64,000 nucleotides of DNA from an uncultured Spirochaetota bacterium (lineage in GTDB: Bacteria; Spirochaetota; Brevinematia; Brevinematales; JAOACQ01), in contig CAWAOD010000012.1 of NCBI GenBank assembly GCA_963783575.1, positions 1-64,000 of the forward strand, in the 5' to 3' direction. Within the stretch, counting starts at the first letter, position 1; every line of letters begins with the position of its first letter. The notes under the pieces are model-generated. The model saw only the letters and a list, made by a program, of their open reading frames with translations. It searched no databases and was not told the DNA's origin. This document shows positions 14,791-22,119 of the stretch, in pieces. The translations under genes were made by a program, and so were the position numbers.

Positions 14791-14863
14791 AGCGGAAAAC
14801 GGGATTCGAACCCGCGACATCCACCTTGGCAAGGTGGCGCTCTACCAACTGAGCTATTTCCGC
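14791..14863 (-). tRNA. tRNA-Gly(GCC)
   Basis: GCGGAAATAGCTCAGTTGGTAGAGC...TT-GCC-AA...GTTCGAATCCCG. Confidence 0.95.
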
Positions 14864-14895
14864 AATGTAATTTAACCTACGTTTTTCTTTGTTTT

Positions 14896-14943
14896 AACAA
14901 GCGTGACCTGTCTGCCGCCAGGCAGGCTGCTTGACCCGGTTAA
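14896..14943. repeat. REP-like element with one nested insertion
   Basis: AACAAGCGTG[ACCTGTCTGCCGCCAGGCAGG]CTGCTTGACCCGGTT; related to 48627, 54384 and 62793. Confidence 0.75.
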
Positions 14944-15228
14944 TTCATCGCAGTCTTGCTGCGATTCCTTTCTCAACTCCTGTACAATACCCCGCCGCTT
15001 AATGCGGGATATTTTAAATAAAGCGGAAATATTATAAATAATTCTTGCTGTCATGTCAATTTTGAATAAGGGTATTTTATTATATAGTGCCTGAACGAAA
15101 ATTGATTTATACATTGATATTAATAATAACAAAGACATTTTTCTATATCAAAGATTTAATATAACCACAGAGGCACGGAGATTGTTTTAGTTATGTCAAG
15201 TAAAAACTTAAAAATTTTTGTAATTTTT

Positions 15229-16620
15229 TCAAATATTGACAATCCCCGGTATTTTATTATAATATTCTTGAGTAAGAACGGGAGAAAATGGAGGTGTTGT
15301 TTGCGGAGATTCTCCGCGGGGTTTATTCCATTTTGCCACCCCATTTTCTTCCATATTATTTATACTCAGGCTATTTTTTTCACATTCCAAAATATATTGT
15401 TGTTTTAAAGTCCTGAATATTATGCGAATCAAAGCCCTGGCTACTCTTTTATATGCTTCCAGATTGCTCATTCCTCTCTTTATGAAATTTATGAACATTC
15501 CTGTTAAGCGATGGTCCTTATTCCAAAAAACAACCTGCTTAGCTGCGTTAATCATTGCATTTTTCAGTCTTCGATTATATCCAAGAAAATGTTTCAGTTT
15601 CTTTCTTTTACCCGGTTTGTCCCTTTTTCCAGTTTCATCTTCAATCATACCTAATCCCGCATATAGCGCAAGGCTGTCTTCTTTTACAAACCGGCCTATA
15701 TGGACAATTTCAGCAACAATTGTGGATGCTATTAGTGCTCCAATACCTTTTAATCCGGTATGATTATCCTTGTTATACATTAATGCTTTTATAGTATTTC
15801 TTTCTCCGGCCAAAGATTCAATCACTTTCTCAATCTCTTTCTTCTGCTTTTTTAACCGCAATAGATTATCAGAAAGATGCCTGATTATCAAAACTAAACT
15901 GCCTGGAAGAGGCTGTATCTTTTGTGAAATCTGTTGAAGCATTGAAATAATTTTTTCACGACCTTTATATTGTCCTCCCCCCATCAGTTTAATCATTTCT
16001 TCACGTTTCAATTCCTTCCATTTATCAAGCTCCGGACAATTGTTTAATAAATTCAATACCCCTATATTGTCCAATATCTTGCTTTTGTTGTCTGTTTCCT
16101 TGTTCTTACCTCCAAAGAATAAGTAGATATCGGGTGAACTGTCATGCAATACCTTCCATAAGTCAGAAATATCCATATTAATCTTTTTGTTTACCTTTTC
16201 ATGGCTTCTGGTTATAATCTGCAATTCCTCATCGACAGCGAACACTCTTTTCCATCTGTCCAGAGAGCCGTTCCTTTCGTATTCCATTGCAAGCAGTGCT
16301 GCCGCATGCGCGTCTTTCTCATTGTTTTTCCCTGGCAACAGTTGGCTCTGTCTCTTGCGTTCAACATCAATTGGCTTAAATGAATAAAATACTACATTAT
16401 TTTTTCGTAAAACCTTCTCAATTGGTTTACTTTGCCCATTACTTCCTTCAATAGAAATTGTAACATCACCCTTGCTTTTTACCCATTGAACAAACCTGTC
16501 CAAACTATCAGTTGTAATTGGGAAAGCTTTTCTTTCCGGATTTCCTCCTTCAGCCCTTATAAACATACACACAAATTGTTCTGAATCCGGATCGATTCCG
16601 ATTGCATCTCTTACTAGCAT
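15229..16620 (-). CDS. IS110-family recombinase/transposase
   Basis: GIDPD, IEGS, KNNEKDA, KGIG, EIVHIGRF, LYAGL, RVARAL. Confidence 0.9.
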   Translation of the reverse strand: MLVRDAIGIDPDSEQFVCMFIRAEGGNPERKAFPITTDSLDRFVQWVKSKGDVTISIEGSNGQSKPIEKVLRKNNVVFYSFKPIDVERKRQSQLLPGKNNEKDAHAAALLAMEYERNGSLDRWKRVFAVDEELQIITRSHEKVNKKINMDISDLWKVLHDSSPDIYLFFGGKNKETDNKSKILDNIGVLNLLNNCPELDKWKELKREEMIKLMGGGQYKGREKIISMLQQISQKIQPLPGSLVLIIRHLSDNLLRLKKQKKEIEKVIESLAGERNTIKALMYNKDNHTGLKGIGALIASTIVAEIVHIGRFVKEDSLALYAGLGMIEDETGKRDKPGKRKKLKHFLGYNRRLKNAMINAAKQVVFWNKDHRLTGMFINFIKRGMSNLEAYKRVARALIRIIFRTLKQQYILECEKNSLSINNMEENGVAKWNKPRGESPQTTPPFSPVLTQEYYNKIPGIVNI

Positions 16621-16850
16621 TTTTTCCTCCTTAGTAATAAAATTATTGGCCGTTCCATTCTAGCACCCTTGTAATGAGCATCAGGCTAATTTTGCATAAA
16701 ATGCCTGGCAATTGTTTTAAGAGTCTAAAACGGCCCTTATGGAGTTGGCAATCTCCGTGTCAGCACTCTTTTTAAAGGCACTCACAGAGTAAGCAACAAC
16801 TTCCATAAGGTATTATACTACCGAGGAAAAAATTTAGAAAACTTTATTTT
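16621..16850 (-). ncRNA. Putative IS110 bridge RNA
   Basis: Two large stem-loops (CCTTATGGAAGTTG/CAACTCCATAAGG and GGCCGTT/AACGGCC) whose loops match the target flanks and the IS ends; RNA boundaries approximate. Confidence 0.8.
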
Positions 16851-17096
16851 ACTAAATATAGTTTACAAGACACGAAGATCGTTACCATCGGCATTTTATT
16901 AAGTTACAAATAAAATTTAAAACTCCGTGACTGTGACTCTGTGGTAAAATTTGAATTTCCGTTTAAGAACTATATAAAAAAATAAGACAGGCCTGAATAT
17001 TGCGCCCCAGCATTAAATATCAAACAGACACCGCGAAACCGGAAATAACTTATTAAAACACGCCGGAAAATTTTCTTTGTATTCATAAAAATATAT

Positions 17097-17126
17097 TTGA
17101 CAGACCGTTAAAGGCCATGCTATAAT
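17097..17126 (+). promoter_or_regulatory. Sigma-70 promoter at the head of the cassette-like array
   Basis: TTGACA-N18-TATAAT with extended -10 TG. Confidence 0.7.
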
Positions 17127-17135
17127 CTTTCCAGT

Positions 17136-17185
17136 GGGGAAATGTGCCGTATAGCGATATGCTTGCCGCGAATTTCCCCTTTTTT
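17136..17185 (+). terminator. Hairpin plus T tract directly after the promoter
   Basis: GGGGAAAT...ATTTCCCC-TTTTTT. Confidence 0.6.
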
Positions 17186-17325
17186 ATTTATATAGTTTGC
17201 TATGATTTAGTAGGGGTAGATTTGGAGATTAATCTGGGTTTTATTTGAGGGAAAGAGGAATTATTATTGTTGTTTTTACAAGTTATATGTAATTCAATAT
17301 TATAATTATATATTGAGAGGGAAAT

Positions 17326-18390
17326 ATGATATGGGATACAATTATTAAGAATGAAGATGGATCTTATATTATACCTTCTAACTGGATATTTCCTTATTAT
17401 TATGAAGCTTTAAATATTTTATTCAGGATAGAAAATGCGTTGCGAGTTTTTGTTTATATCATTTTAAAAAAGGAGTTGAATGAAAAGTGGGATGATATTA
17501 CTATTAATACTGATGAAAGTAGTAGTAGTACATTAAAAGCAATTGCAAAGAAAAGAATTGAACAAGATAGTATATTTGGATATATTGGTTATGATATTAC
17601 ATCTCCTATGTTATATTTAACAAGTGGAGAACTTATTAGAATAATTACTTCTGATGGATATTGGAAATATTTTAAAAATTACTTTCAAGGAAGTAAAGAA
17701 ATAATAAAAAATAAATTAGATGAAATAAATAATATAAGAAATGCTTTATCTCATTTCAGACCAATAAAAATTGATGATATAGATGTTATAAAACAAAATT
17801 CTAAACATGTTTTATTATCAATTGAATCATTTCTTATAGATATTATTTCTTGCTCCAAAAGAATTCCGTCGAATACAACTGATGAGTGGTACAAAAAAAT
17901 TACTTCAATATCTTCTGATTTAATAACTTTATCTTTGACACAAAACGATAAAGAAGATTGGGTAAAAATTAAATTAAAGGTTAAGCTAAATATTTTACAA
18001 AGATCACGTTCACCTCGCATATATAAATATTTTATTGTTTCTAATTTAATAACTCCAAGAATTATTTCACACATGCCAATATCTTCAATATTCCATATAT
18101 TAATTTTGAAAATATTGAAAATAAAAGAAATTGAATTGATGAAAGAAGATATAATGGCTCGTGGTGATTTATTAACTATAAATAATATTAAAGCGCAAAC
18201 TATAAAAGTTGAAGAAGACGGTTCAAATCATTGGTATGTTGATCCTAGTGAACTATATATAACAACTGAAAAAGAAAAGTGTGCAGAGTTTTGGGGTAAA
18301 ATGTATACTTTTATTAACAATGATTTTATATCGCATAGTAATAAATATCCATGGATCCCTATTGATATAGCTAGATGGGATTTATTCTAA
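17326..18390 (+). CDS. Swt1-like HEPN domain protein (putative RNase, possible defence cassette)
   Basis: IENALR, YLTSGELIRII..YW..F and RNALSH (R-x4-H); very low GC. Confidence 0.7.
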   Translation: MIWDTIIKNEDGSYIIPSNWIFPYYYEALNILFRIENALRVFVYIILKKELNEKWDDITINTDESSSSTLKAIAKKRIEQDSIFGYIGYDITSPMLYLTSGELIRIITSDGYWKYFKNYFQGSKEIIKNKLDEINNIRNALSHFRPIKIDDIDVIKQNSKHVLLSIESFLIDIISCSKRIPSNTTDEWYKKITSISSDLITLSLTQNDKEDWVKIKLKVKLNILQRSRSPRIYKYFIVSNLITPRIISHMPISSIFHILILKILKIKEIELMKEDIMARGDLLTINNIKAQTIKVEEDGSNHWYVDPSELYITTEKEKCAEFWGKMYTFINNDFISHSNKYPWIPIDIARWDLF

Positions 18391-18880: not shown

Positions 18881-19813
18881 AAACGATGGACGCAAAAAAG
18901 TGGATCGGAATTGATATCCACAAAAAGCAAATTACCGTTTGCATTATTATAGAAAACGGTAAAAAATCAATCAAGCAATATGAGAGAAATGAAAAAGAAT
19001 TAGCGGAATTTGAGAAAGAGATTGACAAAGAAACGATAATCGGGATTGAATCGACAAACTGGACATGGGATTTAATCAAACGGTTAAAAGATAAAGCAAA
19101 AGATGCGGTTATTTTCAATACTATTGATTTAAAAAGATTAATGGAAAACAGACAAGGAAGATGCAGAAAGAATGGCGATTATATTACAAAGATTTGAAAA
19201 AGAAGAGCTAAGTACCTGTCAGATAAGAAGCGACGAAGACGCTGAAATAAGAGGATTATTATCTGTGAGGGAAGAAATGGTTAGCAATAAGAAAAGCTAT
19301 AAGACAAAGATAATAGCGATGATGGAGTATTGGGGGATTAAAACCGGAGACAAAATGTTCAACAATTTTGAAAAGAACACAAACTGGGTCAAAGAACAAA
19401 ACATACCTGAGAGTATAAAGAGAGCCGTAATCCAGATGTATGTTATGTTAGAAAATCTCAAAGAAGACATTAAGGTACTGGATAAAGAAACAGAAGCCTT
19501 AAGCATAAAGAGACCCGGATATAATGAGATTAAAGAATTAACGGGAATAGGCACAACAACCGGCGCATACATCATAACGAAGGTAGGCAATATAGACCGC
19601 TTTAGTACCTCAAAAAAATTTGTATCATATATGGGATTAGCACCAAGAGTTAGTGAAAGTGACGGAAAAGGAACAAATGGTCAAATTACACGAAAAGTTG
19701 GAAATGTCAAGAGTTTTTCCCATACCTGTACTCGGGTAATTTCCCACCCCTTCCACAAGAGTATTTCCCATATGCTTCACAAGAGTTTTTCCCATAGGAG
19801 GAGGCAAGAATGG

Positions 19814-20563
19814 TTACTCAACCTCCTTATTCAAATTTTGTATTCTGTAAGATTCTCCGCTCAAGTTATAAATATTTGAATGATGTAAAAGCCTGTCCAG
19901 AAGAGCTGTTGTCATAATCGGGTCTCCCATCATTTCAGCCCAATCCTGAAATCCCTTATTCGATGTTATCACAATTGATGTCTTTTCATACAATTCACTT
20001 ACAAGACTAAAGAATAGATTTGCCTCCTTCTTTTCGATAGGCGTGTAACCTATCTCATCAATGATTAATAAGTGTGACTTCATCATCCGGTTCAGCCTGA
20101 AAGCAGAGCTTCTCTGGATGTCCGCCGTTTTCAGAAACTTAATGAGAGTAGTCATCCTTTCAAAGCAGACAATATATCCCTTTTCAACTGCCCGGATTCC
20201 GATACTAATTGCCAGATGCGTTTTCCCCAGCCCCGGAGACCCAAAGAACAACAGGTTATGATGATTATCAATCCAGCAGAAATCCAATAGCTGTGAAACA
20301 TCCATTTTAGATATTCCATTCACTTTTTCAAAATTAAAACCTTCCACATCTTTGCGGACCGGGAAGTGTGCTCCTGCCATATTCCGCTGAAAACGTTTTT
20401 CCACTCTATAATTCAATTCCAGAGAAAGCAGCCTCTGCAGAAAACTCAGATAAGACTCTTTTGCCTTTTCAGCCTCACCAATTTCCTCATCAATCCGTTT
20501 TATCATACCCTTCAACCCGAGAGTTGTAAGCGCAGTTATGATTTGTTCTCTTATCTTCAACAT
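19814..20563 (-). CDS. istB: IS21 helper ATPase IstB
   Basis: GSPGLGKTHLA, LLIIDEIGY, ITSN, LLDRLLHH, GESYR. Confidence 0.95.
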   Translation of the reverse strand: MLKIREQIITALTTLGLKGMIKRIDEEIGEAEKAKESYLSFLQRLLSLELNYRVEKRFQRNMAGAHFPVRKDVEGFNFEKVNGISKMDVSQLLDFCWIDNHHNLLFFGSPGLGKTHLAISIGIRAVEKGYIVCFERMTTLIKFLKTADIQRSSAFRLNRMMKSHLLIIDEIGYTPIEKKEANLFFSLVSELYEKTSIVITSNKGFQDWAEMMGDPIMTTALLDRLLHHSNIYNLSGESYRIQNLNKEVE

Positions 20564-22119
20564 TGCCGGCCCCCGATGGAGTCACAGAAACTCTGGTATT
20601 TCCCGATGTCTGATTTAGCTACTTCAAGATAGTGTTCAGGATTCACTGAAGGCCTGACAATCTTTTCAACATTCAAGGGTATTTCTGCCTTTTCTGTTAT
20701 AAAACAGTTCAGGTAATTATCCCACAAATCCTTCATGGAATAACTATCACTCTCCAGGCAGTTTGAGATCGCTTGTGTAAGCTTCCCGGTATCAATTATC
20801 TTGTCCCTGAAGTATTTTCTTCCGGAAAGACATTGGTCCCTTACATAACGATTGAACTTCCTGAAATTACATTCAAGAAAATCCTTCCAGCCGGGAATAT
20901 CAAAGTACCCGCTTACTTCTTCTTTCAATAACTGCACAGTCTTTCCCATTTCCCGGATCATTGCCCTGTTGGTTACAATCTGCCCCGGAATCACTGAAAG
21001 CCGGTATTCGGCGATTTGCTCTCCCGTTATCCTGTCAAAGACAAAAAGCCGACTGCCCGTCTTGTAGATGTCCACCGAACCGTTCCTGTATTTTTCGGGA
21101 ATATCATACTGGCTTGCATCAACTGCGATCCGGCATTTATCGCTTACACTGCGCTCTTCCCTTGCTCCTATCCTGTCTTTACGGAATATCGAATTCCTGA
21201 CAGATTGGAGATATGGTCTTTCCGTTTCAATCTCTATCAGCGGTATTTTCATTGTAGCCTGGGATATTCTCCCGTTGGCTTTTCTTTCCAGCCATTTCGT
21301 CAGGCTTTCTTCCGCTTCCATTAAACTGTTGAACTCCCGGACTGAGAAGAAACCGTGCTTGATGAATTTGACTACGTTTTCAATCTTTCCCTTACTTTCC
21401 GGGTCAGCAGGCCGGCATACATACATTTTAAGACCCATTTCCCCGATGAAATACTGAAAGTCTTTCGTGTAGATGATATCGCCTGAGTTCTCACTCGCAA
21501 CCATCGTGCAGTCCTGATCGATGACAAGTTCATGCGGTATCCCGCCCATATATGCGAAACAGTCCAACAGATGATTGATCAGGTCTTCTGTCCGGAATGG
21601 CCTCTCCTGGAGGGCCGCATACTTAAAACGACTGGCGGATAACACCGCGGCAAATATGTAATACCTTCTGCCATATCTGTCGGTATATTGACCGAAATCA
21701 AGCTGGAGCTGCTTTCCATATGGCATGTCAGGCACTTTTGTGTAATACCGGCGCTTTTCATTCAAGGTAAGCTGCCCGCTTTCAATCAGGTAATGTACGA
21801 AATTCCTCATCGTATTTTCATTCGCCGGAAGTTTGCCTTTTACCTCCAATAAATAGTCATACACAGCAGACATATTTAGCCGGATGTAATCATTCTTTTC
21901 ATATATTTTCAATATGTCTGTTTTTATTCCCTCGAATTCTTTTTCACGGAAAGAGAATTCCATCAGGCTTTTCTGGTATTCGGAATCGTTCATAGCCCAA
22001 TATTTTCGGACTGTCTTAATATCTATTGACAGTTCCCGGGATACACCATTTTTACTTTTCCCCAAAAGTTTCAGTTTTTTTATGTCCTGATACATAATAT
22101 TTTTCACCATTCCTGCCAT
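20557..22119 (-). CDS. istA: IS21 transposase IstA
   Basis: N-terminal HTH (KTVRKY), QLDFG, GGIPHELVIDQ, PESKGKIENVV. Confidence 0.93.
   Translation of the reverse strand: MAGMVKNIMYQDIKKLKLLGKSKNGVSRELSIDIKTVRKYWAMNDSEYQKSLMEFSFREKEFEGIKTDILKIYEKNDYIRLNMSAVYDYLLEVKGKLPANENTMRNFVHYLIESGQLTLNEKRRYYTKVPDMPYGKQLQLDFGQYTDRYGRRYYIFAAVLSASRFKYAALQERPFRTEDLINHLLDCFAYMGGIPHELVIDQDCTMVASENSGDIIYTKDFQYFIGEMGLKMYVCRPADPESKGKIENVVKFIKHGFFSVREFNSLMEAEESLTKWLERKANGRISQATMKIPLIEIETERPYLQSVRNSIFRKDRIGAREERSVSDKCRIAVDASQYDIPEKYRNGSVDIYKTGSRLFVFDRITGEQIAEYRLSVIPGQIVTNRAMIREMGKTVQLLKEEVSGYFDIPGWKDFLECNFRKFNRYVRDQCLSGRKYFRDKIIDTGKLTQAISNCLESDSYSMKDLWDNYLNCFITEKAEIPLNVEKIVRPSVNPEHYLEVAKSDIGKYQSFCDSIGGRQC

Follow-up and report, generated by a model that had tools for sequence, protein, structure and literature searches.

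Site-specific recombinases are classed by their nucleophile as serine or tyrosine enzymes, and a threonine recombinase is not known more widely. The question of whether such an enzyme exists is raised by a 64,000-nt stretch of contig CAWAOD010000012.1 (assembly GCA_963783575.1; hereafter, the window) from an uncultured Spirochaetota bacterium of the Brevinematales, which carries an insertion sequence (IS) of the IS110 group with a threonine where the recombinase should have its catalytic serine. By its domains, fold, ends and RNA, the element belongs to the IS110 family, and its sequence departs from that family at two defining points, the D-E-D-D tetrad and the serine. A bridge RNA and repeat targeting, which the initial annotation of this locus had emphasized, are on their own ordinary, and IS621 does the same; the most unusual feature of the predicted protein is its Thr/Asn active site, found in an evidently active clade. 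We consider it probable that Thr330 is the nucleophile and that Asn100 is co-adapted to hold the bulkier loop, which would define a threonine-nucleophile IS110 clade.

Active site of the recombinase and its clade

15179..16869, minus strand: complete IS110-group element of 1691 nt, from one CT core to the other; homologues with other flanks share both ends
15229..16620, minus strand: open reading frame (ORF) of the IS110 recombinase, 463 aa, with a RuvC-like domain, a long helical insertion and a Tnp domain
16321..16323, minus strand: codon of Asn100, at the position of IS621 Asp102 (D-E-N-D for D-E-D-D)
15631..15633, minus strand: codon of Thr330, aligned with Ser241, the nucleophile of IS621

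A single ORF encodes the two domains that characterize IS110 recombinases, with an N-terminal match to PF01548 (residues 7-160; 43.9 bits, cut-off 29) and a C-terminal match to PF02371 (residues 290-369; 40.9 bits, cut-off 21.3). Against NF033542 the window protein scores 113 bits for a cut-off of 140, with clade member P0013 at 143, and scores against NF052498 are weak. The AlphaFold model (mean predicted local distance difference test [pLDDT] 85.3, predicted template modelling score 0.73) finds its ten best fold matches in IS621 and ISCro4 chains. The tetrad of this protein reads D10, E58, N100 and D103 in place of the IS110 D-E-D-D, and Thr330 stands in place of the conserved catalytic serine of the Tnp domain. 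In a hidden Markov model alignment of a profile of 40 clade proteins to IS621 (8wt6), N100 falls on D102 and T330 on S241, both within gap-free motifs.

In the 120 of 171 hits that were listed, position 330 holds T 112 times and S 8 times and no other residue; N100 and G331 are present in all 120, D10 and E58 are invariant and D103 is found in 119, while the position before Thr330 (329) accepts eight residue types. At position 330, 92 distinct locus proteins between them use every Thr codon (36/29/13/8), and their four Ser codons are all AGC. The site thus flips repeatedly between two hydroxyl residues only, as expected of a nucleophile. Between residues 318 and 345 the window protein lacks serine altogether, and its residue 297, in the other S/T-rich column of the Tnp domain, is Ile; among the S/T-conserved Tnp columns it retains a hydroxyl at 330 alone.

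The clade was sampled through 109 related loci, 29 from genomes and the best 80 of 128 from metagenomes, and 26 of the 29 genome-collection loci carry Spirochaetota titles. Its members are 26-66% identical to the window protein and fall into 31 full-length clusters at 50%. The best 150 hits of a profile search contained 63 full-length representatives, of which 31 are D-E-N-D (29 Thr, 2 Ser) and the other 32, forming the outgroup, are Asp+Ser (25) or Asp+Thr (7). In a quick tree the D-E-N-D group is one branch with an SH-like approximate likelihood ratio test support of 99, and the eight Ser rows inside it need six changes, at least four of them forced by strong branches. The seven Asp/Thr rows fall on the other side of the tree from the Asn branch. 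These proteins (P0209, P0228, P0238, P0242, P0244, P0252 and P0256) constitute a second IS110 lineage of ~390-480 aa with D-E-D-D and Thr (QTG); the placement of this lineage apart from the D-E-N-D clade suggests a second origin of Thr.

The nearest multi-copy relative lies in a genome of the window's own family, where six ORF copies (L001-L006) are 0-3 nt apart over 1275 nt. Their protein is 58% identical to the window protein, has the motif ETG and no Ser, and stops 39 residues before the window protein's end. Four of the six have a directly intact left end and these uninterrupted copies are 1649 nt long; in the other two, a 506-aa IS sits between RNA and ORF, and the same left end is found in longer flanks. 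At the level of sequence, these copies show the recent multi-copy spread of a Thr-only relative.

Some further observations concern these proteins and loci. In many relatives a Ser precedes the Thr (STG); it was considered as the nucleophile and rejected, as its column is variable and holds Glu in the window and six-copy proteins. The C-terminal 40 residues of the window protein (tail 424-463; window 15229-15351, minus strand) are modelled with low confidence and run into the right end. The 506-aa IS, which we take to be IS1182-like, is inserted at an identical point, between the bridge RNA and the ribosome-binding site, in both interrupted copies (L121:653-2170 and L122:679-2196), either because the composite moved as a unit or because the point is a hot spot.

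Ends, bridge RNA and guides

16868..16869, minus strand: left CT core, junction of left target and right donor
15179..15180, minus strand: right CT core, junction of left donor and right target
16863..16867, minus strand: right donor TGTAA, near-invariant across the clade
15181..15189, minus strand: left donor TAAAACAAT, near-invariant across the clade
16648..16810, minus strand: predicted bridge RNA of ~163 nt, target-binding then donor-binding hairpin (from fold and covariation)
16780..16789, minus strand: left target guide, 8 nt plus core-C position (G here, a mismatch) plus invariant U
16753..16759, minus strand: right target guide, 5 nt plus AG facing the core; 5/5 match to the window site
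16711..16719, minus strand: left donor guide, its first 7 nt conserved and its final 2 varying freely across the clade; core not covered
16668..16674, minus strand: right donor guide, 5 nt plus AG facing the core
16751..16752, minus strand: target-loop handshake AU, complementary to the donor AT before the core
16666..16667, minus strand: donor-loop handshake GG
15194..15199, minus strand: -35 box TTGACA of the predicted circle-junction promoter
16860..16865, minus strand: -10 box TAAACT of the same predicted promoter, separated from the -35 box by 17 nt in the joined ends
16812..16817, minus strand: TATAAT immediately upstream of the RNA, candidate internal promoter

Both ends of the window element recur in the six copies of the related genome, which have six different flanks and all start with CT then TGTAA and end with TAAAACAAT then CT. 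The initial annotation had taken differing ends in other copies as what would speak against it, and in the six they are identical; as in IS110 elements, the ends are scarless at a short core with no target duplication beyond it. All of its quoted junction and guide strings were recovered on the minus strand at the coordinates it gave (16878-16861, 15189-15172, 16789-16783, 16759-16752, 16719-16711 and 16674-16668). TCT is common to both window junctions because a T precedes the core in the window's target; relatives show C or A ahead of the left core, so a 3-nt TCT core was rejected and the core is CT. The left end of the window element measures 247 nt (clade median 312 nt, 61 loci) and the right end after the stop codon 48 nt, and a long left end with the bridge RNA together with a short right end is the arrangement of the IS110 group and not of IS1111.

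No second copy of the window element was found by tblastn in its own 4.9-Mb genome, and no tblastn match in a plasmid collection. The sole other trace in the genome lies on contig C9 (G000:C9:219395-219508), where the right end of a related element (80% identity) survives in decayed form over 114 nt; an arm of the repeat in which the window element sits is ~35 nt away, and no recombinase gene was detected nearby. Among 31 genomes searched for an empty site in relatives, none covered both flanks. No RNA sequencing run was listed, and three DNA runs with small shares yielded five short pieces and zero joints, which bears neither way.

Upstream of the ORF, positions 16815-16640 (minus strand) fold into two long hairpins (-57.1 kcal/mol, z -4.73, 0/200 shuffles equally stable), for which Rfam has no matching family. 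A four-guide RNA was parsed in 82 of the 91 sequences (window included) that match at the N terminus and have 230 nt or more of upstream sequence; the nine unparsed sequences include the two copies interrupted by the IS. In an alignment of the window RNA with 48 of 69 distinct locus RNAs, 98.0% of cells pair (slid controls 30-53%) and 17 of 32 pairs changed on both sides compared with 7.2 in shuffles (0/500), for a structure that was derived from this same alignment and whose inner target-loop stem failed to align. Each of the four ~9-nt guides is followed by a conserved UG, a feature described for IS110, TIGR and box C/D RNAs (PMC12045711). Judged by these features, the upstream RNA is a genuine IS621-type bridge RNA: its four guides, stable two-hairpin fold and stem covariation across homologues bear out the proposal of an IS110 element with an upstream bridge RNA in the IS621 layout.

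Guide-target matches were scored at junctions placed by the donor motifs, independently of the target guides. For the right side, 57 loci with a usable junction gave 31 distinct 5-nt guides after removal of flanks <7 nt and of L064 and L090, whose flanks are donor-like; matches were found at 137 of 155 positions, compared with 46.4 +/- 6.4 in 10,000 shuffles, and the signal ends after position +5. For the left side we used 61 loci with 46 distinct guides, the TT-core candidates L039 and L068 having been dropped by hand; here one fixed register gives matches at 226 of 368 positions (shuffled 97.8 +/- 9.8), and the best of three registers at 279 (shuffled 142.1 +/- 8.3). In 31 same-register elements the left signal spans -8 to -1 (0.52-1.0) and drops to 0.29 at -9, and 26 of them have C at the core position followed by the invariant U, while the best register skips the C in 10 of 46 left target guides. 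Target guides thus covary with targets across loci far above shuffles, a check that the initial annotation had set. In 36 of 40 Thr-bearing loci with both ends, the right target is matched at 4-5 of 5 positions, and the window site itself is matched 5/5 by the right guide and 5/8 by the left guide (clade left range 3-8, mode 6), with G facing the core C as a further mismatch. The two target guides of the window RNA are complementary to one another, as follows from the tandem-repeat structure of their target; the target loop of this RNA is the most self-paired of 70, with 6.95 expected pairs and 12.0 kcal/mol to open compared with a median of 3.8. Across the clade one donor is kept alongside dozens of unrelated targets, with several target motifs recurring across loci. 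Integron attC sites as targets of other clade members were also considered, and 0 of 44 passed a narrow motif test.

The donor guides are complementary to the donor, whose near-invariance leaves little room for covariation, and show single-base agreements in L014, L076, L080 and L085. The left donor guide reads TAAAACA plus two free bases, facing that almost invariant donor (of 82: TA 21, CA 20, AA 15, AT 12, GA 10, TT 3, TG 1), and these two bases show no covariation with the target (10-12 of 46; shuffled 11-13). In IS621 the core is included in all four pairings (PMC11208160), whereas here the left donor guide excludes it. The initial annotation had stated that only the right guides span the core, which holds for the left donor guide across the clade and for this copy, and fails for the clade's left target guide with its C in 26 of 31 elements. 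It had also placed the left target guide correctly and drawn it too short, the extent being 8 nt plus two core positions with a 5/8 match, and had rightly read the right target guide as the complement of core and right target, except that its last A is the handshake position.

Handshake pairing with non-cognate DNA, a mark of bridge systems, is present as well and follows the IS621 layout rule (PMC11208158, section 11). After the core-pairing AG, the target loop has AU (AGAT) in 63 of 82 loci. The first handshake base of the donor loop is complementary to target position -1 in 24 of 46 cases (shuffled 16.7 +/- 2.4, p 0.003), and the second shows no signal (14; shuffled 12.9).

A circle-junction promoter as in IS621 is predicted from motifs at the two ends: of 64 right ends, 60 have a TTG hexamer whose first base lies exactly 10 nt ahead of the donor, and all 62 left ends tallied have a TAnnnT hexamer after the left core, at a 17-nt spacing once the ends are joined. 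At one contig end (L064:2631-2649) the left donor is followed by the core and then by the opening 7 nt of the element's own left end, which is one hint of a circle junction or tandem copy. A second promoter within the left end is possible and would permit RNA expression without circularisation. TTG hexamers are most frequent 31-33 nt ahead of the RNA stem, with 44 hits there in 82 loci; the window copy has the perfect TATAAT without such a hexamer at that distance.

The target repeat and the surrounding locus

16870..16877, minus strand: left target, first unit of the interrupted repeat arm
15163..15178, minus strand: right target and remainder of the interrupted arm, 8-nt-period units ending GTGG
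16923..16945, plus strand: partner arm of the inverted repeat

The insertion site is one arm of an inverted repeat whose partner arm lies, as initially read, at 16945-16923, and the modelled empty site folds with that partner at -17.6 kcal/mol compared with -7.4 +/- 2.2 for shuffles (0/200). Arms were counted with an exact two-unit pattern and a reversed control, giving five arms in the 4.9-Mb genome for zero in the control; the exact pattern occurs in 7 of 31 genomes searched, 1-12 times each. Looser arm scans were uninformative (81 hits, mostly chance; with one mismatch, 9 compared with 5 shuffled). When the genome is instead searched with the guides, 17 sites match at least 6/8 on the left and at least 4/5 on the right, and nine of these, including both sites with 7 of 8 left matches, were judged to be arms of one 8-nt-unit repeat; no remaining site in the genome combines 5/5 on the right with at least 5 on the left. 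As far as sequence comparison goes, the bridge RNA guide is aimed at a low-copy palindromic repeat. The term REP-like (repetitive extragenic palindromic), applied to the target in the initial annotation, is therefore loose: the high copy number and terminal tetranucleotide tag of GTAG/CGTC REPs are absent, the tag as judged by eye, and the repeat is real, though low in copy number and not a classical tagged REP. No supporting paper was found for a link of the repeat to GxxExxY genes.

Whether other copies sit in the same repeat could be checked only in the relative, because the window's own genome holds no second copy. The six sites of L001-L006 are matched at 6-7 of 8 left and 5/5 right positions, and four of the six elements hit the repeat type. 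Together with the window element these four are the only ones to do so among 44 elements with both ends, so that repeat targeting is confined to the window's sub-branch of the clade. The same genome contains a shortened relative (L123 / L022) whose right junction leads into the terminus of an arm of the CTCTGTG type, which is the repeat variant found in the window.

The locus has gathered several repeats and IS elements. A tRNA gene (14791-14863, minus strand) follows the trigger-factor gene, and two hairpin-containing stretches, at 14893-15017 and 17087-17245, are found again at other places in the genome. A second, ordinary Ser-type IS110 (18886-19879, plus strand) is frameshifted and interrupted by an IS21 (19814-22119), and five further loci in the genome match it. 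Between the two IS110 elements, a 354-aa protein with a Swt1-like HEPN domain (17326-18390, plus strand) is possibly a defence-type RNase.

Proposed mechanism and comparison with known systems

By analogy with IS621 (PMC11208158; PMC13626964), we propose that rare excision would join the element ends and thereby create a promoter driving the bridge RNA, one loop of which would pair with the near-invariant donor and the other with a ~15-bp target (8 nt + CT + 5 nt). A recombinase tetramer would then exchange first the top and then the bottom strands at the CT core, aided by the handshake bases. IS621 cleaves through S241, giving 5'-phosphoserine links, and its D102 hydrogen-bonds G242 and holds the S241 loop (PMC11208158). 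In the clade described here, Thr330 would attack the DNA backbone to form a 5'-phosphothreonine intermediate in place of phosphoserine, and Asn100 would replace the Asp that positions the nucleophile loop. The window's branch would be programmed against the low-copy palindromic repeat of 8-nt units; activity of the window copy itself we infer. That a widespread, recently active clade recombines through a covalent 5'-phosphothreonine, with a co-evolved D-E-N-D/Thr site, as an RNA-programmable threonine recombinase in which Thr arose at least twice, seems likely to us, with slightly less assurance than the assignment of Thr330 as nucleophile.

Several points weigh against these readings. The case for a Thr nucleophile is built on sequence. 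In the model, residues 321-340 around the catalytic loop fall in blocks with pLDDT of 76 and 59, and because the model is weak just after the loop, the Thr330-Ser241 correspondence rests on an alignment at ~17% identity. Mutating D11, E60, D102, D105 or S241 abolishes IS621 activity (PMC11208158) and substitutions at positions 102 and 241 are depleted in the IS622 scan (10.1101/2025.05.14.653916), so neither the Thr nor the Asn change is known to be tolerated. The quick tree combines the 63 representatives with 17 chosen hits that include six of the eight Ser hits, added deliberately; the homologues come from searches that share words with the query; and Ser-type IS110 proteins are encoded in the six-copy genome as well. 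The guide-target shuffles ignore kinship, although the gap over them is large and even close relatives carry different guides. Finally, with its guide-guide self-pairing, 5/8 left match and single copy, the window copy may be sluggish.

Some of these points would also suit other explanations. Thr330 might be structural, with the D-E-N-D centre acting without a covalent link (through water or a DNA 3'-OH) or with another residue linked. The invariance of Asn for the third acidic residue and the poorly modelled catalytic loop are compatible with this, as is the frequent replacement of that acidic position in ordinary RuvC domains (PMC11208158). We nevertheless think it unlikely, since the Ser241-aligned site holds only S or T with repeated T-to-S changes, Ser members with N100 exist and mark N100 as compatible with Ser at the nucleophile site, and the element retains IS621-like scarless junctions at the CT core together with handshake bases. 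It is very unlikely that the Thr-type proteins are weak or dead and that ordinary Ser-type IS110 recombinases from the host mobilize their elements in trans: Ser-type D-E-D-D proteins do occur in both the window genome and the six-copy genome, and the window element is single-copy, but a dead enzyme would not keep invariant catalytic residues under synonymous codon variation in an old clade, and the RNA and donor are clade-specific.

A further alternative leaves the threonine-nucleophile clade in place and takes the window insertion to be a half-match event, its position in a repeat arm being incidental. Half-match insertion has been reported for IS621 (10.64898/2026.08.31.748434), and the incomplete left match, the core mismatch and the single site would accord with it. 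The right guide, however, matches in full, the best-matching sites in the genome are in good part repeat arms, no remaining site combines a full right match with at least 5 matches on the left, the closest multi-copy relative also targets an 8-nt-period variant, and the shortened relative adjoins a repeat-arm end, which makes the half-match event quite improbable. The threonine-nucleophile reading, with guided insertion into the repeat, thus remains the one we prefer. If true, a natural Thr clade would add a third covalent recombinase chemistry, and the combination of Thr with an invariant Asp-to-Asn change would show how a composite active site is re-tuned. Furthermore, the clade is distant (~17% identity) from the IS621-like group mined for editing tools and is assay-ready, offering mapped ends, a fixed donor, a ~15-bp target, 46 natural left-guide programmes and a compact bridge RNA.

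We found no description of a Thr or D-E-N-D IS110 in the literature searched, from which subscription papers, ISfinder and several supplements were absent. The word threonine does not occur in the main texts of PMC11208158, 10.1101/2024.06.21.599552, 10.1101/2025.05.14.653916, 10.64898/2026.08.14.744561 and 10.64898/2026.10.21.760802, and occurs once, in an unrelated sense, in PMC13674456. The IS110 serine is termed highly conserved in PMC11208160, and an essential serine has been confirmed in one longer IS110 recombinase (10.1101/2025.10.25.684509). The 86 RNA models of 10.64898/2026.10.21.760802 may already include this RNA family, and the logos of PMC11208160 (~210,000 domains), the supplement alignment of PMC11208158 and the IS622 scan data may also bear on novelty.

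Like TIGR-Tas and box C/D ribonucleoproteins (PMC12045711), the window system combines a Nop-domain fold with ~9-nt guides followed by UG; unlike TIGR-Tas, it is neither an array nor a nuclease-only effector. Its target shares with the GTAG/CGTC REP families (PMC3733652) the form of short intergenic palindromes pairing as inverted arms; those REPs are tagged and often abundant, whereas the arms here have no tag by eye and number 1-12 per genome. ISPpu9/ISPpu10 and REP-targeting IS110 elements (PMC12288879; 10.64898/2026.03.19.712850) likewise insert in repeated intergenic sequence capable of forming stem-loops, a role of the target hairpin being described for ISPpu10 (10.64898/2026.03.19.712850), and differ in that the repeat targeted here is low-copy and made of 8-nt tandem units. 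With CazIS110-1 and other ~400-aa IS110 recombinases (10.1101/2025.10.25.684509), compared by description and not by sequence, the window system shares a long enzyme and a two-loop bridge RNA; CazIS110-1 needs E60 and S312, whereas the window protein has Thr. Outgroup rows among the ~400-aa IS110 recombinases are the nearest sequences, at 14-21% identity.

The closest overall parallel in design is with IS621 and ISCro4 (IS622) (PMC11208160, PMC11208158; PDB 8wt6, 9t56), which have the same RuvC-like and Tnp domains, left-end bridge RNA with four guides, CT core, junction promoter, AT before the donor core with an AU handshake, and insertion into palindromic repeats. The window element differs from them in its left target of 8 nt, not 7, in its left donor guide, which excludes the core and has its last two bases free, and in a recombinase that falls below the NF033542 cut-off and, at 463 aa with a helical insertion, is longer than IS621 (326 aa). 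Above all, at ~17% identity, it carries Thr for Ser241 and Asn for Asp102.

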